A stretch of 64,000 nt of DNA, taken from contig JBEKBJ010000009.1 of assembly GCA_050015455.1 (NCBI GenBank), positions 8,508 to 72,507 of the forward strand, written 5' to 3'. Position numbers and translations under genes: made by a program. The notes under the pieces were generated by a model. That model saw only the letters and a program-made list of their open reading frames with translations. It was not told the DNA's origin and searched no databases. The DNA comes from Candidatus Binatia bacterium. GTDB lineage: Bacteria > Desulfobacterota > Binatia > HRBIN30. Shown piece by piece: positions 2,943-31,001 of the stretch (positions are counted from its first letter, which is position 1; each line of letters starts with the position of its first letter).

Positions 2943-3360
2943 ATCATGGACGACCTCACGCTAGACCTTGCGCCGCCACGCATCGTCCCTGTCGCGAGGT
3001 CACCGGCGGCACCTTGAGTCACCGCCCCTTTGGGACGTTCGGGACTGTTTGGCCGTGAATGCTTGCTGTTGTGATTGCTGGCTCTCTCAAACATTCATAG
3101 GATTGGATACACGTTGACTTTTTCCCTTGTCGATGGCAATTTAACACGCTAGTGTCTCTGCTTTTGGAGGTGAGGTGCAAGGGCAAGGCGGCAGAGGGTG
3201 AATGAAGTCCACTTGCAGTCTGGCGCGGGCGGTACGCGAAGGCGGCGACATGGGGCACGAGGTGGTGCGGATGGTGGGGTATTTTCGGTGGTTGAGGGCT
3301 AGCGAATTGCGTGCGCTGCATCACACGAGGCCGAATCGAGCGTGGACAGAGGAGAAATGT

Positions 3361-9362: not shown

Positions 9363-9466
9363 TGCGCGCACTTAGGTGGTGCGGAGAGCAGCCCGGCCCC
9401 TGAGTGTTGGGACGAAGGCACTAGGAGCCAGTGAGCAGGGAAGGTCGACTGGAAAGGAGGAGGGCA

Positions 9467-10612: not shown

Positions 10613-10684
10613 TCGCTGGCACAGAGGCAAAGAGGGGAAAAGGCAGTGGCTGGTTTCTCCCTGATAGGTGAAAGGAGAAGGGCA

Positions 10685-11971
10685 ATGCGTACGGTGAAGT
10701 GGAATCCTTTTCTCTCGGGTGTAGCGATGCTCCTGGGAGGGGTGCTCCTATGGGCGGGTGCTGCGCACGCCGATATCTCGTCGACTAACCCGGCGGCGAT
10801 CGTGGTGTTCCCGAAAATAGTGGTCGATACGGGCGCTGTGATATCGGACGCGAAAATCGACACCGTCATTCAACTGACCAATACCGCCCCCCAGGCGGTG
10901 AACGTGCGGTGCTTCTACGTCGACGCCAACGGGCACTGCTCGAACGCCCCGACTGCATTCTGCGATCCGGGCCAGCCGGCGAGCGACTACTGTAGCAGCC
11001 CCGGCTATTGCATACCGGGCTGGGTGGAGACTGATTTCTCTTTCCAGCTGACGGCCAATCAGCCGCTCGTGTGGACAGTGTCTGCAGGCTTGGCCGGCGG
11101 AGACTTTCCACTCGCCTCGTTGCCAGGTATAGGCGGTGAGCTCAACACCGGCAGCATCCCGCAGGCGGCTGAGGATCCGATGCTCGGCGAGCTGAAATGC
11201 GTCGAGGTCGGCGATGACGAGATGCCGGTCGATACGAACGACCTCAAGGGCGAAGCGACAATAGAGCTCCTGACCGGGGTAAATATCGACATCGAGGGCT
11301 ACAACGCCGTCGGCATCCAGGCGATCCCAGGGAGCTGCAGCGGCGACTCCTCGATATCGTGCACCGCCGATACGGACTGCCAGCCGCCGGCAACGAGTGC
11401 TGATGACACGCCGTGCATACACGTGAACAATTTTGACAACACTCTGGTGATCGGCGGGCCGAACGCGGAGTACAACGGTTGCCCGAACACCCTCATCCTT
11501 GACCACTTCTTCGATGACGCGCCGGTGCTTGGGAGCAACGTCGATACGTGGCTCACGTTGGTGCCGTGCTCGGAGGACTTCTTCACACAGACCTGCGTCA
11601 CAACCACCGTGCAGTATCTGGTGTACAATGAATTCGAGCAGCGCTTCTCGACCAGCCGGCCGCTGACGTGCTTTAGCGAGTTGCAGCTTTCGGACATCGA
11701 TACGCGTCTTGGCAACGACCCGCCGAACAACTACACCTCGATCTTCAATGTCAATGTTGAGGGGACGCTGACGGGGCAGACGGTTATCCGTGGTGTCGCC
11801 GATTCCGACCCTACCATAACGCCTGGACACGGTCTGCTCGGGGTCGTACATGAGTTCCACCAGCTGAACGGCGGATCGGCCCCCGTCTTCTCCGCTGCGT
11901 ATATGCTGGATCTGAGTGGCTCACGGACGCAGGCCGACATCGTGCTGATGCCGCCGCCTTCGCCACAGTAA
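10685..11971 (+). CDS. Secreted Cys-rich protein of an unrecognised family (paralog B, with inserted Cys-rich loops)
   Basis: The start context (GAAAGGAGAAGGGCAATGCGTACGGTGAAGTGGAA) is nearly identical to paralog A at the nucleotide level. A signal peptide is present, and the conserved blocks are the same as in paralog A. Confidence 0.7.
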   Translation: MRTVKWNPFLSGVAMLLGGVLLWAGAAHADISSTNPAAIVVFPKIVVDTGAVISDAKIDTVIQLTNTAPQAVNVRCFYVDANGHCSNAPTAFCDPGQPASDYCSSPGYCIPGWVETDFSFQLTANQPLVWTVSAGLAGGDFPLASLPGIGGELNTGSIPQAAEDPMLGELKCVEVGDDEMPVDTNDLKGEATIELLTGVNIDIEGYNAVGIQAIPGSCSGDSSISCTADTDCQPPATSADDTPCIHVNNFDNTLVIGGPNAEYNGCPNTLILDHFFDDAPVLGSNVDTWLTLVPCSEDFFTQTCVTTTVQYLVYNEFEQRFSTSRPLTCFSELQLSDIDTRLGNDPPNNYTSIFNVNVEGTLTGQTVIRGVADSDPTITPGHGLLGVVHEFHQLNGGSAPVFSAAYMLDLSGSRTQADIVLMPPPSPQ

Positions 11972-12069: not shown

Positions 12070-13419
12070 CTACGCGTTCCCGGCGAAGGGGACGTTGACG
12101 CGGTAGACGTAGGCGCCGCGGCGAATGGAGACCAGAGCGCCGCGCGCCGAGCGCACCTCGATCATTGTGCGGCGGAAATCCTCCAAACTCCGCACTGACG
12201 TGCCCGCGAGCGCAACGATAGCATCGCCACTCTCAACCCCGATCCGCGCCGCCGGGCTTTGTGGCCGCACCGCATCGACGCGTAGGCCGTTCCGCGCGTC
12301 CGTCAGCCGCACCCCGATCAGTTGCCAAGCCAGAGCGTCAGCCCTTTCCGGCGGGAAGCGGCGTGCATGCAGGGTCAACCGGCGTGCTCCGCTGTCTCCC
12401 ATGACGGTGAGTTCAATTGCACTGCTCTCGGCGTGGTCGCGAATGCGTTGGTCATACTCTTCCGCCGAGTGCACATCGCGGTTGTCGACGGCGGTGATCA
12501 CCTCTCCCGGAGTGATGCGGGCGTCCGCCGCCGGACTGCCGGATTCGATGCTCCGCACCACGACGCCGTACCGGCGCTGCGTCTGCATTTCTAATTGCGC
12601 GGCAAGCTCGGGAGTCAGATCCTGTACGATGGCGCCGACCCAAGGGACGTGCACTTCGCCGTAGCTGATCAGATCGGTGACGATGCGGCGGGCCCGGTTG
12701 ATGGGGATGGCGAAGCCGATGCCCTGCGCCTTCTGATAGATCGCGGTGTTGATGCCGATGAGATCGCCGCTGAGATTCAGTAGTGGCCCGCCGGAGTTGC
12801 CGGGATTGATCGACGCGTCGGTCTGGATGAAGTCGTAATAGGTTTGCTCGCCGGTCTTCAGTGAACGGCCGAGCGCGCTGACCACCCCTGTCGTTACCGT
12901 GTGTGAGAGTCCGAAGGGATTGCCGATGGCGATCACGGTTTCGCCGATCATGAGGTCGTCGGAGTCGCCCATGTTGATGTACGGTAGCGAGGTGTCGGTC
13001 TTGACCTTGAGCACGGCCAGGTCGGAGTCCGAATCCGCACCAACCAATTGCGCTTCGAAGTCTCGATCGTCCGCCAGCGTCACCTTGATCTCGCTGCCGT
13101 GCAGGACGACGTGCTGGTTGGTCAGTATGTAGCCGTCGGGCCGGATGACAACGCCGGAACCGAGGCTGGTTTGCTTGTAGCGCTCCACCCGTGGCTCGGA
13201 GAAATCGTGGAAGAACTCGTCGAACAGCGGATCCCGAAAGGCAGGGAACGGGCTGGTCTGGCGTGCCACGATGGTTTCCGTGGAGATGTTAACCACGGCC
13301 GAACTGACCTTGTGGACCGCTTCGACAACCGGCGTGCGCCGGATCGGAGAGACGTCGGCGTGCGCTGCCAGCGGCAACGCGAGCACAGTCACAAAAGCCA
13401 ACAATAATTGTAGCCGCAT
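12070..13419 (-). CDS. HtrA/DegP-family periplasmic serine protease with two PDZ domains
   Basis: The Ser-protease motif GNSGGPLLN is present, a catalytic His lies in the TNQHVV context, and two PDZ-like segments occupy the C-terminus. I take the start as MRLQLLLAFVTVLALPLAAHA (signal peptide, ATG at 13419); the track ORF extends to 13608. Confidence 0.85.
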   Translation of the reverse strand: MRLQLLLAFVTVLALPLAAHADVSPIRRTPVVEAVHKVSSAVVNISTETIVARQTSPFPAFRDPLFDEFFHDFSEPRVERYKQTSLGSGVVIRPDGYILTNQHVVLHGSEIKVTLADDRDFEAQLVGADSDSDLAVLKVKTDTSLPYINMGDSDDLMIGETVIAIGNPFGLSHTVTTGVVSALGRSLKTGEQTYYDFIQTDASINPGNSGGPLLNLSGDLIGINTAIYQKAQGIGFAIPINRARRIVTDLISYGEVHVPWVGAIVQDLTPELAAQLEMQTQRRYGVVVRSIESGSPAADARITPGEVITAVDNRDVHSAEEYDQRIRDHAESSAIELTVMGDSGARRLTLHARRFPPERADALAWQLIGVRLTDARNGLRVDAVRPQSPAARIGVESGDAIVALAGTSVRSLEDFRRTMIEVRSARGALVSIRRGAYVYRVNVPFAGNA

Positions 13420-13568
13420 GGCCAGTGAGTGCAGCACGGATGCCCGCAAGTCAAGGAGGAGAGACCGACGTCCGCAAAAGCAGGTTCCTCCCCTTACCAA
13501 GGGGAGGTCAGGAGGGGTTGCAAGCAGCGCCGCTGTTATGAGCTGAGCGCCGATTGGATTGTTACCGC

Positions 13569-14117
13569 CTATTCCGCGAACACCGCGGCGGCCACCACGG
13601 ACGTCCACAGCCCGTCCTTATCACCGATGGCGGACTGCGTGACATTGCGCGTGACAACAATCTCGGTCGACAAACGCCACACGTCCTTGCGCTCGTCGTA
13701 GCTCTTGTTGGCGTCGAACTCGACACCCAGGAGCGTCGCCAGCATGGAGGCGGCGAGGTCTTCGGCGTAATCGCCCGCCTTGTCGTCGGTCTGCCCGAAG
13801 CTGTGGTGCTCGGCCAGATAACCGTACTGCGTGCGGTCCTTGGGGATGGCGACGCCGACCGAGGCAGCAATCAAACGGTGCGGTTCGTTGGTGGCGTTAT
13901 CGCTCATGACGACGTAAAGAATCTGGCCGGGTTTGAGCAGCGTCAGGCCTTCCTGCGCGGTGATCAACTTGGCGTGAGGCGGGAAAATGCTCGAGACGCG
14001 AACGACGTTGAACTGTGCGATCTTGGCGCTGCGCAGGGCCATTTCGAAGCTGGTCAGCTTCTCGCGATGCTTCCCCACTCCTCGGGTGAGAAAGATCTTC
14101 TTGGCCACCATCGACAT
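13569..14117 (-). CDS. pdaD: Pyruvoyl-dependent arginine decarboxylase
   Basis: Collinear match to the PdaD family: FLTRGVGKH...LTSFEMAL...NVVRVSSIFPP, with the Ser-Ser site of self-cleavage. The start ATG (MSMVAKK) is preceded by GGAGGAG. Confidence 0.8.
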   Translation of the reverse strand: MSMVAKKIFLTRGVGKHREKLTSFEMALRSAKIAQFNVVRVSSIFPPHAKLITAQEGLTLLKPGQILYVVMSDNATNEPHRLIAASVGVAIPKDRTQYGYLAEHHSFGQTDDKAGDYAEDLAASMLATLLGVEFDANKSYDERKDVWRLSTEIVVTRNVTQSAIGDKDGLWTSVVAAAVFAE

Positions 14118-14147
14118 CGCTACTCCTCCTTCCCCAAGAGCCACCGA

Positions 14148-14179
14148 GATTGCGGCGCGTTTAACACGATTGCGGCGCG
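14148..14179. promoter_or_regulatory. 12-bp direct repeat (GATTGCGGCGCG, two copies 20 bp apart) upstream of pdaD; candidate operator
   Basis: Exact repeats at 14148-14159 and 14168-14179 lie in the 115-bp gap between the mutase gene and pdaD. Confidence 0.25.
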
Positions 14180-14231
14180 GCTACAACCGCAGCCTCGGTA
14201 CAGTGGAACTGCCGACACGGGGCGCAGCCCG

Positions 14232-15898
<1,667 letters not shown>

Positions 15899-15902
<4 letters not shown>

Positions 15903-16398
15903 TCGATCACCGCCAGCGCCTGGCCTGCCTCCACCGCTTGCCCCGGCTCGACCAGCACCTCTTTTACTTCGCCGGTGGCAGGTGACTTCACCTCGTTCTC
16001 CATCTTCATCGCTTCGATGACCAGTAGTCCCTGGTCGCGCACGACCACATCGCCGACCTGGATCAGCACTTCGACGACTTTACCGGGCATCAAGGCGCGC
16101 ACCTCGTGCCTGCCTTTCTCCTCTTCGGGCTCGCCCAACATGACTAGCCGCCGGCGCTCATCGACGATGCGTAACCGGAAGACCTCGCCGGCGATCGACA
16201 CGGTGTAGTGATCGCCATCGATCCCAACGTCGGCCACTACCGAATGCCCGTCGATGAGCAGCGAGTACGTGTTGGGTCCGATGCGCCGGCTGTCGACGGT
16301 GCGCGGCACGCCGTCGATTTCCACCGTGAAGGCGGAATCGCCTGCCGCGTGCACCTCGATGCGGTGCGTCTGCTGCTCGAGTTCCGCCAGGTACGCCA

Positions 16399-16399
<1 letters not shown>
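15899..16399 (-). CDS. Biotin carboxyl carrier / biotinyl-domain protein
   Basis: The C-terminal motif EAMKMENEV places the biotinyl-Lys in AMKM. The start shares an ATGA overlap with the upstream gene, and the gene overlaps the mutase start (ATGA). Confidence 0.8.
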
Positions 16400-17910
<1,511 letters not shown>

Positions 17911-18020
17911 TATCGTGATTCGTGCTCGTGAATCGTGCTCGGAGAGTCCAGCGGTGCTGCGCACCGCTGCGGCTGCTCGCTCTGTTCCACGAGCACCACT
18001 CACGAACACGACTCACGATC

Positions 18021-19589
18021 TTACAAGGGAATGTTGCCATGCTTCTTGGGCGGGTTCTTGTCGCGCTTGCTTTCGAGGATCTCGAGGGCGCGAATCAGCT
18101 TCGGACGCGTGTCCTCTGGCATGATGATCTCGTCGACGTAGCCCAGCTCGGCGGCCTTGAACGGGTTGGCAAAGGTGCGGCGATACTCGTCCACCAAGCG
18201 TTCTTTTTCGCCCACCGGATCGCCAGCGCGATCGAGCTCGTTGCGGAACACGATGTTGACGGCGCCGTCGGGCCCCATGACCGCGATCTCGGCGGTCGGA
18301 TACGCGAAGTTGATGTCGCCGCGGATGTGCTTCGAGGACATGACGTCGTAGGCGCCGCCGTAAGCTTTGCGCGCGATCACCGTGACCTTGGGGACAGTGG
18401 CCTCGCAGTACGCATACAGCAACTTGGCGCCGTGCGTGATGATACCGCCGTACTCCTGTGCCGTTCCCGGGAGAAAGCCCGGCACGTCGACGAAGGTGAC
18501 GATCGGGATGTTGAAGCAGTCACAGAAGCGCACGAAGCGCGCCGCCTTCTTGGAGGCATTGATGTCGAGGCAGCCGGCGAGGAAGGCGGGCTGGTTCGCC
18601 ACGATCCCGACCGAACGCCCGCCCAAACGTCCGAAACCGATCACGATGTTCTTGCCGTACTCACGTTGCACCTCGAAAAAGTGGCGATCGTCGACGACCG
18701 CGGTGATGATGTCGCGAATGTCGTAGGGCTTGTTCGGGGTGTCCGGCACTATCGAACGCAGTTTCTCATCGCGGCGCAACGGATCGTCGTCGGTCGGCAC
18801 AAACGGTGGATCCTCGAGGTTGTTGCTTGGGATGTAGGAGAACAGTTCGCGCACCATGGCGAGGCATTCGCGATCGTCACGGCCGGAGAAGTGCGCCACG
18901 CCGCTGCGAGTGTTGTGCGTGACCGCGCCACCGAGATCCTCCTTCGTCACCTCCTCGTGAGTCACTGCCTTGATGACGTCGGGGCCGGTGATAAACATGT
19001 AGCCGATCTTCTCGACCATGAAAATGAAGTCGGTCATGGCCGGCGAGTACACCGCGCCGCCGGCGCACGGCCCCATGACGACGGAGATCTGCGGGACGAC
19101 TCCGGATGCCAGCACGTTGCGCAAGAAGATGTCGGCGTAGCCGCCCAGGCTGACGACGCCTTCCTGAATGCGCGCGCCGCCGGAGTCGTTCAGGCCGATC
19201 ACCGGCGCGCCCGTCTTCATCGCCAGCTCCATGATCTTACAGACCTTCTCCGCGAAGGCGCCGCTCAAACTGCCGCCGAACACGGTGAAGTCCTGCGAGA
19301 AGACGTACACCAAGCGGCCATCAATGGTGCCGGAGCCGGTGACCACGCCGTCGCCCGGTATCTTCTTCTTGTCCATGTCGAAATCGGTGCAACGGTGGGT
19401 TTTGAACTTGTCGGTCTCCACGAAGGAGCCGGGATCGAGCAGCACATCGATGCGTTCGCGGGCGCTGAGCTTGCCTGAAGCGTGCTGCCGCTCGATGCGA
19501 TCGTCACCACCGCCCAGTTCGGCTTCCCGGTGCAGGCGCTCGAGTTGTTCCAGGTTCTCTTTTAGGCCCATAAGAAAGCTTGTCCCCAC
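18021..19589 (-). CDS. Acyl-CoA carboxyltransferase subunit (propionyl-CoA carboxylase beta / methylmalonyl-CoA carboxyltransferase 12S family)
   Basis: The carboxyltransferase regions are present (...[18 protein letters not shown]...GGARIQEG...), with N- and C-halves. The start is GTG 19589 or ATG 19571. Confidence 0.85.
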
Positions 19590-19787
19590 CTGCGGGCCGG
19601 GACGCAGCCGTCTTCATATGCGTCCCGCGAAGGGAATTCAAGGATGCGGCTCAGCGCAGTTTGCCAACTTCGGCTATAGTGGGGCTGCGCATGCTCGGCC
19701 CGTTCGCCGCGTAAAATGCGACCGAGGCGCTGGAGGCACCGGCCAGGAATAGTGTATACTACGCCCCGAGTCCGACGGAGGTGACGG

Positions 19788-20996
19788 TTGTTGGAGGTCG
19801 AAAAAAGGCAATACCGCTTCCCTGCGATTTACTTTGAAGCCACGCGGTTGTGCAACCTGCAGTGTTCCGTGTGCATGTCCGCGAGCAACGACGCGGAGCG
19901 CGTGCGCGCCAGTCGCAGGCAGGAATTGAGCTTCGAAGAGATCCGCGATCTGGTGCTCATACCCGCCAAGCGCCTCGGCGTGCTGGCCATCGGCTGGAGC
20001 GGCGGCGAGTTCCTGCTGCGCAAGGATGCCTTCGACCTCTTTCGGCTGACCATCGACCTGGGCTACCAGTGCAAGCTGTGCAGCAACGGTGAGCTGCTGA
20101 CGCGCGATGTCTTGCTGCAGATCAAAGAGGCCACTGGCGGGCGGGTGACCATCGCCCTTGGCCTGAATTCCATCGATGAACACAACGTCTGGAGCCGCGA
20201 CGCGGCGCCGGACCGCACGCTGGAAGTGTTGGATCTCTGTGACGAGCTGAAGATCGACCGCCACGTCATCATCACCATCGGTAAACACAACGCCGAGAGC
20301 TTCGAACGCACGGTGAAATACCTGGTGGATCGCCACATCTCCTACAACCGCTCGCCGCTGGTGGCCCGCGGGTCGGGCTGCGATGCCTTCATGGAGAAGG
20401 CCTTCGATCGAAAGGATCTGGAGGCAAAATTTCACCCGGCGCTGCGCCGGCATGTCAACGGCTACGTGAGCTACACGCCGTTCTTTCTCTCGCCGGAGCT
20501 GCACACCGAGGTCTCGGGCGGCGTGCGCAACGGTGCCGTGCCGCACAACCCGCCGATAGGCTGCTGGGTGGGCACGTGGCTGACGTTGAACGCCGAGGGT
20601 GACGTCTCGGTGTGCCCGGTGCTGCTCGACGTGCTCTCAGCCGGCAACGTGCGCGAGAAGCCGCTCGATCGCCTGGTCAACGAAAGCGAGCTTTTCGCCA
20701 CCATTCTCGACCGCAGCCAGCTCAAGGGGCGCTGCGGCCGCTGCCGCTACCAATACACCTGCGGCGGATGCCGGGCCATGGCCTACTTCCACACCGGCGA
20801 TTACATGGCCGACGACCCAACCTGCTTCTTCGACCCGGTCGACAAGACCACGGTCAGCGAGCACGAGGAAGAGACCAACCGCTTCTTCAAGAAATACCTG
20901 ATGATCGCCCGTTACGTCGGGCTGTATCAGCGGCCCGAGCGGAAACCGGCCCACCTATCCGAGCGTGCGGAGGAGCGCCCCGGCCTCAACTCGTAG
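19788..20996 (+). CDS. Radical SAM enzyme with a C-terminal SPASM (auxiliary Fe-S) domain; peptide-maturase-like
   Basis: The CNLQCSVC motif (CX3CX2C) lies near the N-terminus, and a C-terminal Cys cluster CPVL...CGRCRYQYTCGGCRAMAY...DPTCFFDP is typical of SPASM. Confidence 0.8.
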   Translation: MLEVEKRQYRFPAIYFEATRLCNLQCSVCMSASNDAERVRASRRQELSFEEIRDLVLIPAKRLGVLAIGWSGGEFLLRKDAFDLFRLTIDLGYQCKLCSNGELLTRDVLLQIKEATGGRVTIALGLNSIDEHNVWSRDAAPDRTLEVLDLCDELKIDRHVIITIGKHNAESFERTVKYLVDRHISYNRSPLVARGSGCDAFMEKAFDRKDLEAKFHPALRRHVNGYVSYTPFFLSPELHTEVSGGVRNGAVPHNPPIGCWVGTWLTLNAEGDVSVCPVLLDVLSAGNVREKPLDRLVNESELFATILDRSQLKGRCGRCRYQYTCGGCRAMAYFHTGDYMADDPTCFFDPVDKTTVSEHEEETNRFFKKYLMIARYVGLYQRPERKPAHLSERAEERPGLNS

Positions 20997-21250
20997 CGGC
21001 GCAGCATGCTGCGCCGCTGGCGTTTGGACGTTATCAGGCTATATTCTGCTGAAGTGCCCAGAATATGGCGACGGAGCCCAATCGTGCGGCGCGACCAAAT
21101 CGCCCAGGGCAGCGCCCTGGGCTGATGGCTGGCGCCCCTTTGCGGCTTGCTTTTCTGGAGCCCTGAAAGGGCGGAGAGTCATGAGCCCCGGGCAACGCCC
21201 GGGGTGGCCCGGAAATCATTCCCGGCTCTGCCGGAGAAAGGGACATAACC

Positions 21251-21967
21251 ATGAGTGACACCATCCTAATTACGTGGCTCGGGCACGCGACCTTCCGCAT
21301 CCAGAGTGCGAACGGCAAGATGCTGCTGATCGATCCATGGATCCGCGGCAATCCGGCCTGTCCGGACGCCGAGAAACAGACTGGGCCGCTCGACGCCATG
21401 CTCATCACGCACGGCCATTTCGATCACATCAGCGATGCCGTCGAAACCGCACGCGAAGCGAAGCCACACGCAGTTGTGGCGATTTACGAGACCACGGCCT
21501 GGCTCGAGCGCAAAGGCGTCGAGAACTGCGTCGGAATGAACAAGGGCGGCACGGTCGAGGTGGCGCCCGGCATTTCCGCCACCATGGTCTATGCCGATCA
21601 TTCGTGCGGCATCTTGGACGACGGCCAGATCATCTACGGCGGCGACCCGTGCGGCTACGTCATCGAGTTCGAAAACGGGAAACGCGTCTACCACGCCGGC
21701 GATACCAACGTCTTCGGCGACATGAAGCTCATCCGCGAGCTCTATCGGCCCGACATTGCCCTGCTGCCGATCGGCGGGCTCTACACCATGTCGCCACGCG
21801 AGGCGGCGCTGGCGGTCAAGCTGCTCGGCGTCAAGCGCGTCATCCCCATGCACCACGGCACCTTCCCAGCGCTCACCGGCACGCCGGAAGGGCTGCGTGC
21901 GGCAACCAAGGGGATTCACGGGTTGAAAATCGTCGACTTGAAACCCGGCGAGTCGACCGAGTTGTGA
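21251..21967 (+). CDS. MBL-fold metal-dependent hydrolase (UPF0173 family)
   Basis: The motifs ITWLGHATFRIQ...LLIDPW...HGHFDHISD match the beta-lactamase-fold HxHxDH pattern. Confidence 0.8.
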   Translation: MSDTILITWLGHATFRIQSANGKMLLIDPWIRGNPACPDAEKQTGPLDAMLITHGHFDHISDAVETAREAKPHAVVAIYETTAWLERKGVENCVGMNKGGTVEVAPGISATMVYADHSCGILDDGQIIYGGDPCGYVIEFENGKRVYHAGDTNVFGDMKLIRELYRPDIALLPIGGLYTMSPREAALAVKLLGVKRVIPMHHGTFPALTGTPEGLRAATKGIHGLKIVDLKPGESTEL

Positions 21968-22082
21968 AGACTCTCTCCGCAACGCCGTCCGCTGCTGCTC
22001 CCTCCAGATCGAGCGTAAGCATCAAGGCCTTCTCGAAGCTCATCGAACTTCTCCCGGACGGGCAAGGGACAGGCCTGTCGCG

Positions 22083-22490
22083 CTAGCGGGTATGGTCGGT
22101 CAATCGAGCAGTGACCCTCTCCACCCAGTGCCGCAGCAGTGCGGCGTGCTGGGGTAAGCGCCCCGCGATTTCCTCCGCCAAGTCTTCGTTATAGGTGTGC
22201 ACGGTCAGGTTGCGATCGTCGGCCATGGCCAGTGCGAGGCGCGTCTCGTCTTCGTCGAGAATCCCGACCTCCAGCGACGCCCGAGCTACGCCCTTGGGTG
22301 AACCGAGATCGAGGCCTTCCACTTCCCGGAGGTAAAGCTGAACCGCCTTCCAGACAGCCTCGAAAGTGTACTCGAAACGTTGGATCGCTGCATCCCGCTC
22401 GACCTTTGACCGCTCCCGTTTGTGCGCCAGCTCATCGAGCGTGGAGAGGACCTCGCGGGCCGTGGCGACGCGTTGGGTCAATCGTTCCAC
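22083..22490 (-). CDS. hepT: HepT-like HEPN toxin (nucleotidyltransferase substrate-binding protein, HI0074 family)
   Basis: At 135 aa with QRFEYTFEAVWKAVQLYL and a C-terminal RNLTVHTYNE R-x4-HxY motif, it matches HEPN/HepT toxins. It overlaps the upstream MNT gene by 13 nt. Confidence 0.75.
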   Translation of the reverse strand: MERLTQRVATAREVLSTLDELAHKRERSKVERDAAIQRFEYTFEAVWKAVQLYLREVEGLDLGSPKGVARASLEVGILDEDETRLALAMADDRNLTVHTYNEDLAEEIAGRLPQHAALLRHWVERVTARLTDHTR

Positions 22491-22756
22491 GGAATGCCCT
22501 CAGCCAGAATTCTACGGCGAAACGCCTCACTGACGGTTGAAAGGTCGATGACCTCGACCCGGTACGGGATGTCACTCTCTTCCAGCGCCTCACGCAGACG
22601 GGCCAGCGTCCCCGGAATCAGCGGGGCCTCCGGTAACACCGCCACGTCGATGTCTGAAGTGCGGCGCGCGTCGCCGCGCGCGCGTGATCCGAACAGAAAC
22701 AGCCGGGCGCGTTGCGGCGCAAGAAACTTCACGACGATCCGCCGCGCCGCCTCCAC
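22478..22756 (-). CDS. mntA: MNT (minimal nucleotidyltransferase) antitoxin partner of HepT
   Basis: The GS-x9-DxD motif LFLFGSRARGDARRTSDIDVAV is present. Only the C-terminal ~92 codons of the 407-aa track ORF are plausible, starting at GTG 22756. Confidence 0.6.
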   Translation of the reverse strand: MEAARRIVVKFLAPQRARLFLFGSRARGDARRTSDIDVAVLPEAPLIPGTLARLREALEESDIPYRVEVIDLSTVSEAFRRRILAEGIPWND

Positions 22757-22821
22757 ATCGTCGCGTTCGCCGCCCGTGTGTGCGTAGGCCACAGCGGCAG
22801 TATTAGTCCTGACCACACAGC

Positions 22822-23100
22822 CGGTCAACGGCTGCCGCGCGCCCCGTGCCGCGGCGCTAGAGTTCCTGGCTTTTACCTTGTCAATGGCATAGAAGGGTGT
22901 CCTCGTTTCCAACGGCCCGAACGGCCATGACCTGCGAACCACGGTGGAGACGCCGCCATTCGACCACACGGAAGAGTCGACGGTCCCGGCGTCGCTTCCC
23001 AGGGTCGCGCTGTTGCGATGGGAGGAGGAACGATGACGCACACGCGTAGGTGTCTGACGGGCGAAGAGAGTAACCCCGGAAGGTGGCGGGTGGCACTCGC
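22822..23100 (+). repeat. Copy 1 of a duplicated ~270-bp leader (promoter/5'UTR plus first ~25 codons) preceding a dockerin-cargo gene
   Basis: About 90% identical to 29305..29567. Contains CTGGCTTTTACCTTGTCAA, a GGAGG RBS and the conserved N-terminus [13 protein letters not shown](N/K)PGRWRVALA. Confidence 0.8.
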
Positions 23101-26065
23101 AGCGCTGGTTGCATTGCCGATTTGCACGGCGGCCATGGGCGTTGCTGACACCGCAAGCCTCAACATCAGCCCGTGCGTCGTGGGCACCGGCACGGGGGCG
23201 AGCTGCACCGAGACCGCGCTGAATGCCTGCCTCCCAGGCGGCGGGAGTTTCGACGGCACCGTGACCTTCAACTGCGGTGGCGCCGCCACGATTACTGTCA
23301 CCAGCACCAAGAACATTAGCGCCGATACCACCATTGATGGCGGGAGTCTGATCACGATCAGCGGCGACAGCGGCGGCGGCATCTACAACTCCTCGGGCAC
23401 GGTCACCGTCACCAACACTATCGTTGCCAATAGCACCTCGGGCGGCAATTGCGGCGGCAGCGTTCCTGTCACTGATGGCGGCCACAACATCGACGACGGC
23501 CCGACGTGCGGTTTCACGGGCACAGGCTGTACCGCCACGACCGGCACCTCGTTCTGTAACACCAACCCTGTTCTCGACCCCACCGGGTTCCAGAACAACG
23601 GCGGGCCGACGCAAACCATCGCGCTCCAGGCGGGCAGCCCGGCGTTCAACGCTGGCAATGAGTCCGTGTGCGCGGCACCGCCCGTGAACAGCCTCGACCA
23701 ACGCGGCTACGTCCGGCCCGGTACGGGCGCAACAAGCTGCTCCATCGGCGCGTACGAGTACAACTCTGGAATCTCATGCGGCTCGGGCGCGTGTGTATTT
23801 CCCCAGGTGTGTGTTGTTGGTCAGTGCGCCACCCCGGCACCGACTCAGACGCCGACGAGTATGCCGACGCAAACGGCAACCAATACCCCGGTGGTGACCA
23901 ACACTCCGGTGGTGCCGACTGCCACCCCGGTAGCCACCAACACCCCGCAGACCGGCTCGACCAACACGCCGACCACGTGCGGCAGTGCCACCAACTACAC
24001 CGTTGGAACCAATCCGCATGGCGTGGCCGTGGGCGACTTCAACGGCGACAAAAAACTCGACCTCGCCGTGACAAACGAGGGCTCCAACAACGTCTCCATC
24101 CTGCTCGGCAACGGCGACGGCACCTTCGGGACGGCCACCAACTACAACGTTGGAACCGATCCGCATGGCGTGGCCGTGCGCGACTTCAACGGCGACGGGA
24201 AACTCGACCTCGCCGCGGCCAACAACGGCTCCAACAACGTCTCCATCCTGCTCGGCAACGGCGACGGCACCTTCGGGACGGCCACCAACTACAGCGTTGG
24301 AACCAATCCGAATGGCGTGGCCGTGCGCGACTTCAACGGCGACGGGAAGCTCGACCTCGCCGTGACAAACAACGGCTCCAACAACGTCTCCATCCTGCTC
24401 GGCAACGGCGATGGCACCTTCGGGACGGCCACCAACTACAACGTTGGAACCAATCCGCATGGCGTGGCCGTGGGCGACTTCAACGGCGACGGGAAGCTCG
24501 ACCTCGCCGCGGTAAACAACGGCTCCAACAACGTCTCCATCCTGCTCGGCAACGGCGACGGCACCTTCGGGACAGCCACCAACTACAACGTTGGAACCAA
24601 TCCGCATGGCGTGGCCGTGGGCGACTTCAACGGCGACGGGAAGCTCGACCTCGCCACGGCAAACAACGGCTCCAACAACGTCTCCATCCTGCTCGGCAAC
24701 GGCGACGGCACCTTCGGGACGGCCACCAACTACAACGTTGGAACCAGTCCGTTCAGCGTGGCCGTGGGCGACTTCAACGGCGACGGGAAGCTCGACCTCG
24801 CCGCGGCAAACAACGGCTCCAACAACATCTCCATCCTGCTCGGCAACGGCGACGGCACCTTCGGGACGGCCACCAACTACAACGTTGGAACCAATCCGCG
24901 TGGCGTGGCCGTGGGCGACTTCAACGGCGACGGGAGGCCCGACATCGCCGTGGCAAACAACGGCTCCAACAACGTCTCCGTGGGGCTCAATTTGGTCTGT
25001 ACTACGGCAACCCCGACGTTTCCCACCAGCTCGCCGACCAACACGCCTACCAACACCACGGCGCCCACGGTTACGCCGACGTTGGCAAGTACGCCCACTC
25101 AGACTCCGACGCCAACGAACACGCCGAGCGCGACGCCGACACAGACGCTAAGCGCCACCAGCCCCCCTACGTCGACGCCGGCGGTAACGGCCACCAGCGC
25201 GACCGCCACGCCAACTCAGACGCCGACGAGCATGCCGACGTCAACCGCGACCAATACCACGACGACCACACCCACCAACACGGGAACGGCTACACCGACT
25301 GGCACTCCCACAGCGACCCCCTTGCCCCTTGTCGTCAGAGGGACCTGCATGGAACCTAGCTCACAGGGCCTCGCCCCCTGCACTGCCGGCACGGTGGTTA
25401 CTGCCTACCTGTGCACGGACCCAAGCTGCGCGGCGTCGACGCTGATCACACTCGAAGTGACTCAAACGGATGCGAATGGACAGTTCGTCTTCGTTCTCAG
25501 CCGCGGGCAGGTCGCGGGCAAGCGGCTGGTCTTTGACGCCACCATCGTACAGGCCGGAGGTGCCCTGACAACCAGGGGCCGCGCGGCCAGCGACACCACC
25601 GTCGATCTACAAACCATCGATTTCGGTCCCATTGGAGCGGCGACGAATTTGAGTGAGCTGATCGATCTGACATCGGAGGCCGCGGTGCAGCTGGTGGACG
25701 ACAACGGGGGGGCGCAGCACTACAGCGATCAGGGCATCAAGGATATCATCCAAGCCGTGCGAACAGCCGACAGCGGCATCAACTTCGCTGGCTTGACCGC
25801 GGCCGCCGCGGTTACCCTGGCGACCGAGACGGCAGGCAACGATCCCGCGGTACAAGCCGCGCTGCAGATGAAGTTGTGCACCGGCGATTGCAACGGCGAC
25901 GGCACGGTGACGGTTGATGAGATTCTCACCATGGTGAACATCGCCCTCGGCATTGAGGATGTCTCCACCTGCCTCCCCGGGGATGCGAACAATGACAAGA
26001 TGATTACCGTCGATGAGATCCTCACGGCCGTGAACGACGCGCTGAACGGGTGCGCGCCCTCCTGA
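23033..26065 (+). CDS. Secreted cargo protein: parallel beta-helix (choice-of-anchor-Q-like) domain, P/T linker, seven-bladed FG-GAP beta-propeller, P/T linker, unknown domain and a C-terminal dockerin
   Basis: A Tat-like/signal N-terminus (TRRCL..., [17 protein letters not shown]) is present. The beta-helix domain ends with [10 protein letters not shown]...CSIGAYEY. Seven 49-aa repeats of the form [47 protein letters not shown] show the FG-GAP Ca-binding motif. The C-terminal dockerin is [25 protein letters not shown]...[28 protein letters not shown]. The track ORF starts at 23018. Confidence 0.75.
23988..25016 (+). repeat. Seven near-identical 147-bp tandem repeats encoding the FG-GAP propeller blades
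   Basis: The 147-bp period is directly visible; it reads caccaactaca(a/c)cgttggaacc...ggcaccttcgggacggc, with only a few substitutions per unit. Confidence 0.9.
25877..26062 (+). other. Dockerin module (two Ca-binding loops) at the C-terminus of the beta-helix/FG-GAP protein
   Basis: [12 protein letters not shown] and [12 protein letters not shown] loops are each followed by a hydrophobic helix ([10 protein letters not shown] / [11 protein letters not shown]). Cys residues bracket the module. Confidence 0.6.
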
Positions 26066-26208
26066 TTATTTTCGGTCGTCGCCTTTCACCCACAATCCCG
26101 ACCACCACCCCAGGGCCCTCGGCGACAATTACACCAGCGGCGAGCAGGTTGCATCGTACCGGCAACCTGCGCCACAATCGCCGGCCGCAAGATTGAGACG
26201 AGTGCGCA

Positions 26209-27921
26209 GTGCCTGCTGACCAGCATACCATCAACGATAGCGATCGGGTTCCCGCCGGCATTCTCTTCGGCGACATGAAGGGTTCGACCGAGGAGGCCGA
26301 GCTCGACGAGAAGTCCACAATCGTCAAGCTGCGCGAGTACGAACGCATCATCAACGAGATCGCCAATCGCTTCGGGCCGAACTTCTACAAGGTCAAGACC
26401 GAGGGCGACGGCTTCATGGCGACCTTTGCCAGCGCGCACATCATGGTGGCGTGCGGCCTCGCCGTACAGCAGGAGTTTTGCCGCCGCGGCTGGCAGGTCC
26501 GCCTGGGAGGACACTACGGCGAAGTGTTTCGCAACAAACAGGGCGACGCCTTCGGAGCCGACGTCAATCGCGCCGCCCGCATCATGTCCGCCGCGGACGC
26601 GACCTCGGGCGAGTTCCTGGTGTCGGACGCCGTGCAAGTGATCGTGCGCGACCGACTACCGGACGCGCATTTCGAGCCGCACGAACCGATCCTCGCCAAG
26701 GGCGTCGGCAGCCTGGTCGTCTTCGCGGCCGTCGCCACCGGCCAACCCTCGCGGCCACCGGTGAGCCCGCACGTGGGAGCGGCAAGCGCGAAACCCGGCA
26801 GGCTTCCGCCGCCTCCGCCGCGGCGCAATCGGCCCCGAATCGGCCCGGCCGCTGCCTTCACCGTCCTGCTGATGCTCGCCGGACTGGCTGGGGGCGTGTG
26901 GTATTGGCGCGGCATGGCACGGAAGACGCTGCCGCAGAACATCGGCGATCGCAGCGGCAAACCAACGGATGTGATGAGGCCGATCGCGGTCATGGAATTC
27001 GAGAATCAGCGTGCGGACGATTCGAAGGACGACTGGTACGCCAAGGCGCTGCAAGCCGCGTTCAACACCGAGCTGAGTAAGATCCCGACGCTGCCGGTGG
27101 TCGCTCCCGAGCTGATTCAGCAAGTCGCGAAGGAAACCAGCCTCGATCGCATGGCAGCGGCCAAGAAACTGGGGGTCACCCGGTTCGTGACCGGTTCGTT
27201 TGCGGTGGTCGGCGACTCCATCCGCATCGACGCGCGCATCGTCCAAACGACCACCGGCATCCAGGAGGCGGCGGAAAACATCGAAGGGCGTCAAGACGAG
27301 TTCTTCGCCCTGCAGAAAAGCCTTACCCTGGCCACGCTCGAACACTTTCGGGTCCGACTCACCAAGAGCGAAGCCGAGTCGTTCAAGCAAACGACCAACT
27401 CGCGTCTCGACAAGTACAAGATGCTGCTGGACGCCGAAGGCGTGACGAAGGGCAAGAGCGGCGGTGAACCGGAAACCAAGGCGTCCGATGCCCAGGCCTT
27501 TGGCAGTGCCGGGAGAGAAGTCATCGGAACCTTCGCCGCCGCGCGCGTGTGGTCGTGGGTGCTCCCAGCGCCGGCGGTCGCATTGGCGCAGGCGCCGCTG
27601 GAAGCCGCCGCGCGCGAGGTCCTTGAGGAGTATCGCCGTGCGCACGAGCGCGGCGACCTCGATCAGCTCGCGAGCCTGTATGTCAACTTCCCGGCTGCTC
27701 AGCGACAGAAAATCGATGCGTATTTGAAGGGGATCACTGACCTGCACGTGGAGCTGGCCGACGTGAAGATCCAGCCGCGGGAGCACGACATCGCCGTTTC
27801 CTATATCCGGCGCGACAAATTCGTCGACAAAGAAACGGGCGAACCCGTCACCCTCGAAGTGCGCCTCACCAAGTTCCTGGTGCAGGATGGCGCCAAGTGG
27901 AAGTTCGCCGAGGGATCGTGA
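26209..27921 (+). CDS. Class III adenylate/guanylate cyclase with one TM helix, a periplasmic-type domain and a C-terminal NTF2/SnoaL-like domain
   Basis: The cyclase motifs FGDMKGST, KTEGDGFMATF and VNRAARI are present. The TM helix is AAAFTVLLMLAGLAGGVWYW. The C-terminal ~120 aa show an NTF2-like pattern (LEEYRRAHERGDLDQLASLY...). Confidence 0.75.
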   Translation: MPADQHTINDSDRVPAGILFGDMKGSTEEAELDEKSTIVKLREYERIINEIANRFGPNFYKVKTEGDGFMATFASAHIMVACGLAVQQEFCRRGWQVRLGGHYGEVFRNKQGDAFGADVNRAARIMSAADATSGEFLVSDAVQVIVRDRLPDAHFEPHEPILAKGVGSLVVFAAVATGQPSRPPVSPHVGAASAKPGRLPPPPPRRNRPRIGPAAAFTVLLMLAGLAGGVWYWRGMARKTLPQNIGDRSGKPTDVMRPIAVMEFENQRADDSKDDWYAKALQAAFNTELSKIPTLPVVAPELIQQVAKETSLDRMAAAKKLGVTRFVTGSFAVVGDSIRIDARIVQTTTGIQEAAENIEGRQDEFFALQKSLTLATLEHFRVRLTKSEAESFKQTTNSRLDKYKMLLDAEGVTKGKSGGEPETKASDAQAFGSAGREVIGTFAAARVWSWVLPAPAVALAQAPLEAAAREVLEEYRRAHERGDLDQLASLYVNFPAAQRQKIDAYLKGITDLHVELADVKIQPREHDIAVSYIRRDKFVDKETGEPVTLEVRLTKFLVQDGAKWKFAEGS

Positions 27922-28017
27922 GATGTCGCGTGCGTGGCGTTTGCTGAACCGACCCTTGTCATGAGCAAGGTGGCCGGCGGTCATCGGCGCGCGATAGAAG
28001 TAAGGGGGCGGGAGAAC

Positions 28018-29304
28018 ATGCCGAACCGGTGTCGAGGATACTGGCTTGTGGTATCCATGGCGGCTCTTGTCTTGTTCGGGTTGCCGCTCAGTGTAGTGCC
28101 GCGAGCCAACGCCGCCGGGAATTCCAACCAGTTCGGTGGCCAAGATCGCGCCGCGGCCGCGGCGCAGATGATCGTGCTCGGCGTCCAGCAGGGCATTTCG
28201 TCCCTGCCGCCGACCTCGGGCCAGTCGTTTGCGTACCAATTCGATCCGGCGTCGGACACCTACGTCCGCAGTGAGCAGTTGGGACCGACCTCGTTCCGCT
28301 CGCCGCAGACCGTCGGGCCCGGGAAGTTCAGCTTCCGCTTGGCGACGTCCTACTTCGAGCTCGCGGACACCAAGGCGCCGATCCCTTACCTCGTGAGTTC
28401 GCCGCCCGGCACCGCGCTCGGGGTCGGCGCTTTGGGCCTGCAGGCGGATGCGAAAGTGGCGCTCGTCAACCTCTCCGCCAACTACGGCTTTACCAACCGC
28501 GTCGAAGTGACGATGAACCTGCCGGTCGTCGTCGTCGATGCAAGCGCCAAGCAGATCTTCAGCACCAGCCAGCCCACCGGGCCGCCGCAGCAGGCGCCGT
28601 TCAGTGGAACTCCCATCGTGACGGATTCTACGGGCAAGCCAGATCTGGCGGCGAGCGTCGGGTTGCTGAACCAAGCCATTCAGGCCGGTGCCCTCCATCT
28701 GCGCAAAGAATCATTGAGTGCTCTGGGCTTCAGCTTCAACGATGGCACCCACGTCGGCGTCGGGCGCATTAGCCTAGGTGTGAAGGGTGTGCTCTACGCT
28801 GACAAGATCGTCCAGCTCGCCGCCGCTCCCGAGTTCTACTTCCCCAGTCCCAACCAGGGCGAGTTTGCGGGCTCGGACAGTGCGGCGATCCTGCCGCGCC
28901 TGGTGGCGGCGTTCAGGTTGGCCGATGCCGTCAGGTTGCACATCGACGCCGGGTACGACTACGACTTCGACAAGGACGAGCTGCGGCGGTTCGTGTGGAA
29001 TCTCGGGCCGTCGCTGGCACTGGGCCGGGCGACCGTGGATGCCGGGGTGGGGGGCTCGAAGTTCAATACCGGGATCAAATGGACCCCGACCACCGCGCCC
29101 TTTGTCGACAACTCAGGCAACCCCGGCTCGATTCGGGCGTTGGGCGACAACCGGCTGGGCAGCAACTTCATCGACGCGCTGGGCGCGGTGAAGGTGCGGC
29201 TGGGGACCAAGTCGGTGCTCAGCGGAGCCGTCAACGTCCCGTTGAACAACGAAGGCTTCCGCGCCGCCGCCGTCGGCACGCTGGCGGTCGAGCTGCATTT
29301 GTAG
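28018..29304 (+). CDS. Secreted protein of unknown function, possibly an outer-membrane beta-barrel
   Basis: ATG 28018 follows TAAGGGGGCGGGAG. The signal peptide is LVVSMAALVLFGLPLSVVPRANA. Alternating hydrophobic beta-strand-like segments run to the C-terminus (...AVGTLAVELHL). Confidence 0.5.
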   Translation: MPNRCRGYWLVVSMAALVLFGLPLSVVPRANAAGNSNQFGGQDRAAAAAQMIVLGVQQGISSLPPTSGQSFAYQFDPASDTYVRSEQLGPTSFRSPQTVGPGKFSFRLATSYFELADTKAPIPYLVSSPPGTALGVGALGLQADAKVALVNLSANYGFTNRVEVTMNLPVVVVDASAKQIFSTSQPTGPPQQAPFSGTPIVTDSTGKPDLAASVGLLNQAIQAGALHLRKESLSALGFSFNDGTHVGVGRISLGVKGVLYADKIVQLAAAPEFYFPSPNQGEFAGSDSAAILPRLVAAFRLADAVRLHIDAGYDYDFDKDELRRFVWNLGPSLALGRATVDAGVGGSKFNTGIKWTPTTAPFVDNSGNPGSIRALGDNRLGSNFIDALGAVKVRLGTKSVLSGAVNVPLNNEGFRAAAVGTLAVELHL

Positions 29305-29567
29305 ACCACGGCCGACGCGCGCCCCGTGCCGCGGCGGTAGAGTTCCTGGCTTTTACCTTGTCAACGGCATAGAAGCGTCCTGGTTTCCGACGGCCCAAAC
29401 GGCCATGACCTGCGAACCACGGTGGAGACGCCCACACGAAAGAGTCGACGATCCCGGCGTCGCTTCCCAGGGTCGCACTGTTGCGATGGGAGGGCGAACG
29501 ATGACGCACACGCGCAGGTGTCTCACGGGTGAAGAGAGCAAACCCGGAAGGTGGCGGGTGGCGCTCG
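29305..29567 (+). repeat. Copy 2 of the duplicated ~270-bp leader preceding the second dockerin-cargo gene
   Basis: Aligns with 22822..23100 with a few substitutions and one ~12-bp indel. Confidence 0.8.
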
Positions 29568-30927
29568 CCGGTCTCGGTATGACGGGGGACGGGTTTGCTC
29601 AAGCCGACGTCAGTCTCGTCTTTGGAGACCCAACTGCTTTCCCCGTCGCCGCCACCGCGGCGCCCGAGGCAAGCGGCAGCGCGGCTTTCGATGGAACGAA
29701 CTTTCTCGTCGGCATTCAGACGCAAACTACAGTTGGCGCGCAGCTCGTGTCGCCAGCGGGTGTGACGCTCGGTCCTCTGATCACAACCAATCGCAGCGGT
29801 AATGAGCCGGTGCTCGCTTTCAATGGGACCAATTACCTGTTGGCATGGGCGACGCTCGATGCAAGTCCCTTTGCCTACGGGCAGTTGGTGAGTCCGTCGG
29901 GAACTACCGTCGGCTCCCCGTTTCAAATCAGCCAATCCAACACCGTCATCCTTACCGGAGTGCAATGGTCGTTGGGCGGCATTGCCTCGGACGGGACGAA
30001 CTACCTGGTGGTGTGGACCGATTCACGGCTTTCCCCGGACAAATATATCTACGGGCGCGTGGTTGCGGACTCCGGGAGCCCCGTCGGAAGCGACATCATG
30101 ATCAGCGAGAGCCCCGGCGCGGAAGCCCAAGTCGCCTTCGACGGCAACAACTACCTCGTCGTCTGGCACGGCGAAGACTCCAACAGCTCCTTGGTGATGG
30201 GAAGATTCATGGACCGAGCGGGGGCACTGGTTAGCGCCGAATTCGTTGTGAAAAATGGCCCGGCTCCGAGCGACAATCCCAACGCCGTCGCGTTCGGCCG
30301 AACCAACTACCTTGTGGTGTGGCCGGACGAGGTGGACTCGAGCAGCCACCAGTGGAACATTTTCGGGCAATTGGTGACGCCTTCCGGCGCCCTCACCGGA
30401 GAGGTGCTCCAGATCACCAGCGAGCCCGGGGAGCAGTTTTACCCAACCCTCGCCTTCGACGGTCGCAACTACCTGGCGACCTGGACGAACTTTACGTGCA
30501 ACGTGTCTGCGGGCGAGACGTGCGGAGATGTGCACGGCCAATACCTGAGTCAGTGCGGCACGCCGATAGGCGCTGCATTCCCATAGGCGCGGGAGCTGGC
30601 ACCCAAATGATCTCGCCGGTGGCGTTCGGTGCCGGTCAGTACCTGGTGGTGTGGAATAGTGATGCCACCATCAGCCACAGCGGGATCACCGGCGGCGATG
30701 TGTACGGGACGTTCCTCGCGCCGGTGCCACTGGCCTGCGCCGGTGACTGCGGCGGCGACGGCCAAGTCACCATCGATGACATCCTCACCATAGTGAACAT
30801 CGCGCTGGGCAACACCACCCTTTGCGCGTGCGAAGCGGGCGACGTCAATGGCGACGGCCAAATCACCGTCGATGAGATCCTGACGGCGGTGAACAACGCG
30901 CTCAACGGGTGCGTGCAAGGGCCGTGA
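29501..30927 (+). pseudogene. Dockerin-tagged repeat (propeller-like) protein interrupted by an apparent +1/-1 frameshift near 30,590. It is either a real pseudogene, a slippage site or a sequencing error.
   Basis: Frame 2 (29405..30586) carries ~50-aa repeats (VAFDG.NYLVVW ... GQLVSPSG..G). The same repeat and the dockerin continue in frame 1 (30598..30927: ISPVAFGAGQYLVVW ... DCGGDGQVTIDD ... DVNGDGQITVDE). At the junction there is an imperfect duplication CGATAGGCGCTGCATTC / CCATAGGCGCGGGAGCT. Confidence 0.5.
30736..30924 (+). other. Dockerin module at the C-terminus of the frameshifted repeat protein
   Basis: [59 protein letters not shown]. Confidence 0.6.
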
Positions 30928-31001
30928 GGAGTGAGGGCCTGAACACCTCACGCTGCGTGGCGGCGGCGCTCGAGCTTGCGCAGCCGTTTCTCGTGGTCCG
31001 C

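Follow-up and report, generated by a model that had tools for sequence, protein, structure and literature searches.

The Repeat and Its Two Genes

The window under study, a stretch of 64,000 nucleotides (nt) from contig JBEKBJ010000009.1 of a Candidatus Binatia bacterium, contains two genes for secreted proteins that begin with nearly the same DNA. The genes are called A and B here, and the direct repeat from which both start is called the module. It is about 273 nt long and covers upstream DNA, a putative 5' untranslated region (5' UTR), the ribosome binding site (RBS), and the first codons. Module copy A lies at 22828 to 23100 and copy B at 29308 to 29568, on the same (+) strand and 6.5 kb apart. 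Copy A was delimited by alignment, a repeat finder, and BLAST, the last of which puts the two copies at 88.6 to 89% identity over 265 to 273 columns (E of ~1e-84 to 1e-100). An earlier note on this DNA had reported ~90% identity over ~200 bp of noncoding DNA, the RBS, and a conserved N terminus. The alignment agrees, at 89%, ~205 nt, and 23 codons, and moves the boundaries by just 3 to 6 nt at the 5' ends. The note went on to propose that conservation of the noncoding part marks a shared regulatory leader rather than a simple gene duplication. How, then, did two such genes come to share their beginnings?

From its 5' end, copy A comprises ~65 nt of upstream region, a putative 5' UTR of ~140 nt (22893 to 23032, +), the RBS, and the 23 codons held in common with gene B, which end in (N/K)PGRWRVALA. 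The putative 5' UTR of gene A includes the invariant block AACGGCCATGACCTGCGAACCACG, a CUUCCCA tract, and the 10-nt segment at 22954 to 22963; that of gene B is ~128 nt long (29373 to 29500, +). The RBS is GGGAGGAGG in A and GGGAGGG in B, and the start codons are the ATGs at 23033 and 29501. Two insertions or deletions (indels), of 2 nt and 10 nt, separate the copies. Both lie 5' of the ATG, neither is a multiple of three, and the longer one, CGCCATTCGA at 22954 to 22963 of A, is absent from copy B. An upstream ATG at 22927 (A) and 29405 (B) shares the frame of the gene only in B. Because of this, and because the indels are not multiples of three, the ~205 nt before the start codons are noncoding. 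Two core blocks, one a 22-mer and the other a 31-mer, are present twice each and no more in the window, for an expected count of 0.00, and a scan allowing 3 mismatches found only the same two copies of the module. A miniature inverted-repeat transposable element or other small mobile element was considered and rejected, there being no terminal inverted repeats, 2 copies in the window, and very few in the collections searched.

Gene A Joins the Module to a Foreign Cargo

Gene A (23033 to 26065, +) encodes a choice-of-anchor Q domain, seven FG-GAP repeats, and a dockerin. Its first 47 codons (23033 to 23173, +) are module derived and specify a Sec-type signal peptide followed by ~13 residues, with homology to proteins encoded on four contigs of related organisms (L007, L008, L009, and L010, described below). 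The rest of the gene (23174 to 26065, +) is the cargo, that is, the choice-of-anchor Q domain, the seven 147-nt FG-GAP repeats, Thr/Pro linkers, and the C-terminal dockerin. Cargo homology begins exactly at Cys48. In the choice-of-anchor Q homologs, this position corresponds to residues 29 to 31, directly past their own ordinary signal peptides; one such relative reads MRKTALRSSGVGLALLLPCLTLPSRALA|CVVGTG..., its own signal peptide and then the mature start. The module N terminus occurs in 0 of the 120 A-cargo homologs listed, and relatives of the cargo carry the name of Binatia proteins in NCBI. Since cargo homology starts at residue 48 and no listed homolog has the module N terminus, these comparisons identify gene A as a chimera, with module codons 1 to 47 fused to a foreign cargo at its first mature residue.

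The seven tandem FG-GAP units (window positions 23827 to 25008) are 92 to 93% identical to one another. One other assembly of the locus (L002, ENA ERZ27249941) is 735 nt, or 5 units, shorter across this array, a difference that may reflect repeat-number variation or assembly collapse.

Gene B, a Second Chimera That Looks Damaged

Gene B (29501 to 30586, +) encodes a repeat domain with >850 relatives and no Pfam model. Only codons 1 to 23 (29501 to 29569, +) come from the module; they meet the native body (29570 to 30586, +) at the junction VALA|GLGM. An intact ortholog, P0006 from ENA ERZ1426565, is 465 amino acids long and 83% identical, has its dockerin in frame, and starts with MMIKAAITSFTALLVACAGLGMTVGGSAQADV. 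Homology between gene B and P0006 begins at B residue 20, inside the hydrophobic core of the signal peptide. Judged from these alignments, gene B is the second chimera, in which module codons 1 to 23 appear in place of the native N terminus.

The open reading frame (ORF) of gene B ends at TAG 30584 to 30586 after a 1-nt loss in the C-run at 30580 to 30582. The frameshift site is gca ttc cca TAG, where P0006 reads straight through (AAFSIGAGTGTQM), and the remainder of the gene, from IGAGAGTQM... through the dockerin, continues in the -1 frame (30582 to 30927, +) and is contiguous in P0006. Independent assemblies from ENA, JGI, and Logan all show an identical frameshift, which is therefore real. 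It marks a pseudogene lesion or, with lower probability, a -1 slip site (C_CCA_UAG). The hybrid signal core has a weakness of its own: it contains only 10 uncharged residues, and its best 12-residue hydropathy is 1.07 versus 2.2 to 2.8 for the comparators (A, L008, L009, L010, and the native B and A-cargo signals). With a weak signal core and a dockerin cut off by the frameshift, the product of gene B is probably impaired. The statement in the earlier note that the two downstream proteins are unrelated apart from the dockerin holds; the dockerin of B, however, is in another reading frame.

Copy B starts 3 nt past the stop codon (29302 to 29304) of a Phenol_MetA_deg-like outer-membrane-channel gene (27934 to 29304, +), and gene B could also be transcribed by read-through from it. 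In a more distant relative (L010, positions 1100 to 1400), a B-like gene is frame broken elsewhere, with TTFGAGQY encoded twice in two frames, which is either an assembly artifact or recurrent decay of that gene family.

Native Host, Rarity, and Genomic Setting

Where does the module come from? Five copies are known overall, A and B plus one each on L007, L008, and L009, the last three in close relatives. L008 (Ga0326728_10010619) shares synteny with positions 13016 to 22003 of the window, at 86 to 92% nucleotide identity, and its module homology to the window begins 4 nt upstream of the CTGGC motif of the candidate promoter element described below. On L009, the upstream block is complete, and the motif, leader, and N terminus are there as well. 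In both, the cargo is of a third type, made of CarboxypepD_reg repeats. The second gene of L010, a more distant homolog sitting 16 nt past a dockerin gene, lacks the leader but encodes a signal peptide homologous to that of the module and a cargo of the CarboxypepD_reg type. The module is thus native to a CarboxypepD_reg-type secreted-protein gene of a narrow Binatia lineage. L007 is different again: its positions 1 to 300 are an orphan module, consisting of the leader and 47 codons with a stop directly after ...FNISP (a 48-codon ORF). The position of this stop is the module/cargo junction of gene A, and an unrelated alpha/beta-hydrolase-like gene comes next.

The module is plainly rare. A 20-mer exact search of metagenome contigs gave one match, L008, and a 19-mer invariant in all five copies had no exact match in 185,579 GTDB species genomes. 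In 44 related Binatia-type loci (645 kb in all), nhmmer and blastn returned only noise for the module, and these loci are also without gene A, gene B, the cyclase gene, and the channel gene. A profile of the N terminus run against 1.84 billion protein representatives recovered P0001 to P0003 and one irrelevant match; a word-indexed protein search recovered one match. As for the copy number on which a regulon would depend, copies of the module do occur outside the window, but only in close relatives. With 2 copies in the window and 5 overall, the data searched give no sign of a large regulon.

The window is identical to JGI contig Ga0181524_10000177 (76.8 kb), and near-identical contigs occur in independent ENA, JGI, and Logan assemblies. 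Binatia metagenome-assembled genomes encode radical-SAM proteins with up to 86% identity to the adjacent one, and with one of these genomes the propionyl-CoA carboxylase beta subunit shares 93% identity. The segment from 22000 to 31000, which holds a toxin-antitoxin pair, gene A, a cyclase-like gene, the channel gene, and gene B, is a variable region. In the closest Binatia genomes (L012 to L015), the A-to-B segment (22 to 31 kb) is missing beside the radical-SAM and MBL genes, and L008 has thioesterase and acyl-CoA dehydrogenase genes there instead.

An origin of the leader as a decayed dockerin 3' end was also considered and rejected, as only its last ~25 nt (TGTTGAGA...GGACGAACGATG) resemble a junction on L010 and the rest is without significant similarity. 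On L010 (1540 to 1570) and L011 (790 to 820), tandem dockerin genes meet at a conserved junction, ...AACGG(G/A)TG(T/C)TGA GAAAGG.G.ACG..CG ATG, and the module leader shares homology with it across its final ~25 nt (TGTTGAGATGGGAGGACGAACGATG), former Cys-stop codons included.

Age of the Duplication

How much of the conservation calls for selection depends on how long the copies have been apart. Noncoding divergence, taken from -27 to the ATG, is 0.063 between A and B and 0.13 between A and L008. Because the former is smaller than the latter, the A-B copying event is younger than the split from the organism of L008. Recency alone would mainly account for the noncoding conservation. At four-fold degenerate sites of five flanking orthologous genes, divergence between the window and L008 is 0.21 (238/1124). 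The leader is likely under mild purifying constraint and likely has some function. As a sign of a shared regulatory leader, the noncoding conservation thus loses most of its force: it owes most to the youth of the copies, each of the two genes is a recombinant chimera, and gene B shows signs of damage. What stands of that proposal is its first half, a common 5' module without whole-gene duplication; a selected regulon leader is unsupported.

Probable Grafting by Recombination

The explanation that we favor, with a probability of roughly 0.7, is that the 273-nt module is a 5' expression and export unit grafted by recombination onto unrelated secreted-protein genes. It would consist of a promoter region, the ~140-nt leader, an RBS, and the beginning of a Sec-type signal peptide, all from a CarboxypepD_reg-type gene, and recombination would have put it before other secreted-protein genes, with two unrelated cargoes in this genome. 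Gene A would have retained codons 1 to 47, joined at the first mature residue of its cargo. Gene B would have received only the first 273 nt, which replaced its native upstream region and first ~18 codons, the crossover falling inside the Ala/Leu-rich hydrophobic core (VALA|GLGM). In gene A, the module would supply the promoter, possibly a weak sigma-54-type -24/-12 element near 22866 to 22882. Gene B, with its weakened signal peptide and frameshift, would be a by-product and no designed member of a regulon.

That both genes are chimeras, where the module is native, and how rare it is are shown; several points nonetheless weigh against this account. (i) The direction and number of the recombination events were deduced from five copies, and three of these lie on short contigs. 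(ii) Gene B and P0006 were compared at the protein level. (iii) The search of this genome for copies covered one 77-kb contig, and more may exist elsewhere. (iv) The leader has changed more slowly than four-fold sites (0.13 versus 0.21; z of ~2.5), and recency is then not the whole story. (v) Two separate junctions fall after codon 47, in gene A and in L007, which could indicate a more directed process than chance recombination.

A Probable Promoter Within the Module

Whatever its history, the module has to be considered as the source of transcription of gene A. Upstream of gene A lies a divergent nucleotidyltransferase (MNT) gene of an MNT/HEPN pair (22478 to 22792, -), with a GTG start at 22792. 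The gap between the two genes is 240 nt (22793 to 23032), of which 205 nt are module. With just 240 nt available, the promoter of gene A almost certainly lies within the module. The MNT gene has a sigma-70-like promoter of its own, TTGACC-18-AATACT (22828 to 22799, -), whose -35 hexamer abuts the 5' edge of copy A. This promoter ends 7 nt before the GTG start, which suggests a leaderless or near-leaderless mRNA for the MNT/HEPN pair.

What kind of promoter might gene A have? The earlier note had pointed to CTGGC-N7-TTGTC as a near-consensus sigma-54 element, and the sequence is present in both copies, at 22866 to 22882 (+) and 29346 to 29362 (+), inside the only AT-rich patch (~45% G+C). In copy A, the GG is at 22868 to 22869 and the GT at 22880 to 22881. 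If the promoter is sigma-54 dependent, transcription would start near A22893; the predicted start in copy B is near 29373. The spacing is correct, and the reading as a -24/-12 element is possible, but "near-consensus" overstates a site with 8 of 13 consensus positions and a score of 2.7 bits.

From such an element one can build the proposal that the module is a selected leader through which sigma-54 and an enhancer-binding protein coactivate both dockerin-cargo genes, within a regulon of secreted proteins. This is a tentative idea and, on balance, a doubtful one. The pattern TGGC-N7-TTGY is expected ~4.8 times per 128 kb (both strands), or ~0.01 times per 240-nt region, and was seen 9 times in the window against the 4.8 expected. 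The element is identical in A, B, and L009 (GG-N10-GT), and L008 has CTGGCTTTTGCATTGCG, the canonical GG-N10-GC (TGGC-N7-TTGC). GT at -12 also has a precedent in Salmonella, in the promoters of pspA, pspG, and hydN verified by chromatin immunoprecipitation (PMC3844500, Table 3). A consensus scan found no sigma-70-type promoter on the + strand, and the window encodes two PrsK/AtoS/ZraS-like histidine kinases. There is a wider precedent in PEP-CTERM genes, which encode secreted proteins and have common sigma-54 upstream regions and long leaders (PMC1569441).

Set against this is the poverty of the match. Against the consensus YTGGCACG-N4-TTGCW, the window copies agree at 8 of 13 positions and L008 at 9 of 13, levels reached by 1,926 (at least 8/13) and 390 (at least 9/13) window positions. 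A matrix of 29 Salmonella sigma-54 sites gives the element 2.7 bits, versus at least 16.4 for the training sites, and ~90 window positions do as well; one mismatch is a T in place of an A that is invariant in 29/29 training sites. Six-frame translations of the window and the fetched loci contain no GAFTGA activator or RpoN box, and the Sigma54_activat domain is absent from Pfam scans. No upstream activator block is kept in all copies, the only common block (-65 to -27) being missing from L008, and the 19-nt core element matches L008 at 15/19 positions, no better than the whole leader is conserved. Finally, one of the two supposed regulon members, gene B, is a damaged chimera, and all collections searched yielded five copies only. 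The sigma-54 idea is therefore weak, and the regulon idea is unsupported.

Extended -10, ECF-like, and sigma-32-like promoters were also tried manually and rejected as poor matches or as not conserved across the 2-nt and 10-nt indels.

Two other features of the window touch on the question of regulation. Upstream of a repeat-protein gene (3202 to 6312), the sequence TTTTCCCTTGTCGATGGCA (3112 to 3140) resembles the module core TTTTACCTTGTCAATGGCA at 17/19 nt (3120 to 3138; E = 3.2). The site lies 64 to 82 nt before the start of this gene, which has dockerin-like repeats, and reads TTGAC for CTGGC, hence no -24 element; the resemblance could reflect a site for a shared factor or chance. The two kinases are paralogous 7TM-GAF histidine kinases (43604 to 45778, -, and 48211 to 50520, -), each with a full-length PrsK match that falls below the cutoff. 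The best matches of the pair are AtoS and ZraS, no response regulator adjoins the kinases, and beside them lies a gene resembling FeeM and exosortase-associated acyltransferases (45775 to 46422, -). PrsK is the kinase of the XrtA/PEP-CTERM system.

Possible Directed Movement of the Module

A stronger version of the grafting account would make the module a portable cassette of promoter, leader, and signal peptide that is repeatedly grafted onto extracellular cargo genes and places them under one switch, possibly dependent on sigma-54 and an activator. We consider this unlikely. If it were true, recombination would recruit new dockerin proteins into a coregulated secretome, with the codon-47 breakpoint used twice.

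More specific, and a little less likely still, is programmed switching of cargo, in which the module and the 3' dockerin serve as homology arms that allow one promoter and signal peptide to be moved among cargo cassettes, or the DNA between the direct repeats to be deleted. Several features fit. There are three independent junctions, after codon 47 in gene A and L007 and after codon 23 in gene B; the copies form a direct repeat with 6.5 kb between them; the DNA of the dockerins is ~76% similar; related genomes have tandem dockerin-gene arrays with conserved junctions; and the window has a second homogenized 5' end, at 9452 to 9498 and 10670 to 10716. Other findings speak against it: neither copy has a recombinase, invertase, or transposase gene nearby, terminal inverted repeats were not found, and the independent assemblies fetched for the locus agree with one another and include no variant with a deletion or inversion. 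The copies have also diverged by 6 to 11%, hence they are not frequently homogenized.

At the second homogenized 5' end, the RBS and first 7 to 10 codons (MRTVKWN...) are 89% identical in DNA. The genes concerned are tandem paralogs for secreted proteins that are only 34% identical, which suggests recurrent 5'-end gene conversion in this genome.

Leader RNA and Export Signal

The earlier note had also suggested that the ~140-nt leader could be structured, and fold and covariation checks were run on it. A structured regulatory RNA in the 5' UTR, whether a riboswitch, a thermosensor, or an RBS-sequestering leader, is very improbable. The slower divergence of the leader relative to four-fold sites would suit it, as would a 24-nt block invariant in 5/5 copies and the ability of the pyrimidine tract CUUCCCA to pair with the RBS sequence UGGGAGG in single-sequence folds. 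In the comparison of copies, this RBS hairpin does not hold up, with substitutions that break pairs in 3/5 copies at each of two pairs. The leader tolerates indels of 10 nt and 2 nt, and its folds are no stronger than those of shuffled controls (z = 0.29 and 0.03). RNAalifold gave a covariation term of +0.88, and 0 of 43 pairs were compensatory in the 4 to 5 copies compared. Rfam, searched with the whole window at gathering thresholds and with the element at E of ≤10, offers no family; the best match has E = 0.32 and 19 bits versus a 63.6-bit threshold. The riboswitch idea thus goes unsupported.

What about the export signal? The TRRCL sequence near the N terminus had been likened to a twin-arginine (Tat) motif, which would mean export of folded, calcium-loaded cargo. 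In Tat signals, the RR motif abuts the hydrophobic core. T-R-R-C-L does resemble Z-R-R-x-hydrophobic, and RRC recurs in the distant homolog on L010 (MAYARRCS) if an upstream ATG is used, but a Tat signal is highly unlikely here: the RR is at residues 5 to 6 and the core starts at residue 20, with 13 residues between them that include two Glu and two more Arg; the L009 protein (P0002) reads TRACL, with R-A in place of RR; the Tat-signal models of Pfam and NCBIfam give no match at E of ≤0.01; and the cargoes are Cys-rich, Ca-binding extracellular repeat proteins whose relatives use ordinary Sec signals. The Tat idea is likewise unsupported, and the module N terminus is best read as a Sec signal with a long n-region. 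Taken together, the analysis demonstrates neither a sigma-54 regulon nor an RNA switch nor a Tat signal.

Significance and Comparison with Known Systems

Genes A and B offer a clean, datable case of secreted-protein genes gaining promoter, leader, and export signal in one recombination step. They do so in Binatia, an uncultured phylum-level group whose genomes are rich in dockerin-tagged proteins of unknown function. They also carry a caution, namely, that noncoding conservation between paralogs of one genome cannot count as evidence for a regulon before the duplication has been dated. Should the weak -24/-12 element be functional, the link of sigma-54 to families of sorted extracellular proteins, known from PEP-CTERM, would extend to dockerin proteins.

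The closest regulatory precedent is indeed the PEP-CTERM system, with its secreted proteins, a common C-terminal sorting or anchoring domain, mostly single-gene units, and a common -24/-12 motif. Its sigma-54 upstream regions have leaders that average 71 nt and reach 221 nt (Haft et al. 2006, PMC1569441). The window, like that system, has PrsK-like kinases. The C termini here are dockerins, however, and the -24/-12 match is weak. PEP-CTERM motif 1 (17 nt ending in TTTACA, ~63 nt upstream of -24/-12) is absent at 22793 to 22813 and 29273 to 29293. Unlike the two short motifs of PEP-CTERM genes, the similarity here extends over all 273 nt, from recent duplication.

In function, the closest analog is found among the "upstream homology box" (UHB) genes of Borrelia burgdorferi (ospE/ospF/elp, Erp). 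There, a conserved noncoding upstream box and a conserved leader peptide precede unrelated mature proteins (PMC12018966), the same upstream-plus-leader arrangement as here, and the family is attributed to recombination. The likeness is one of analogy only, with no sequence relationship. The Borrelia UHB occurs in many copies on cp32 prophage plasmids, precedes lipoproteins, and is under RpoS control. By contrast, there are two chromosomal copies here (both in the 64-kb window, on a 77-kb contig), a Sec type-I signal, dockerin cargoes, and visible damage to one copy.

What remains is the comparison with ordinary ectopic gene conversion or segmental duplication. The 273-nt tract, its location in same-strand genes 6.5 kb apart, and a divergence below that of orthologs are all as expected of that process, as is the one breakpoint that falls in microhomology (the Ala/Leu-rich signal-peptide core). 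Unlike an ordinary ectopic conversion, the tract is a complete expression and export front end, and in close relatives it is joined to at least three downstream contexts: gene A, gene B, and the orphan on L007.

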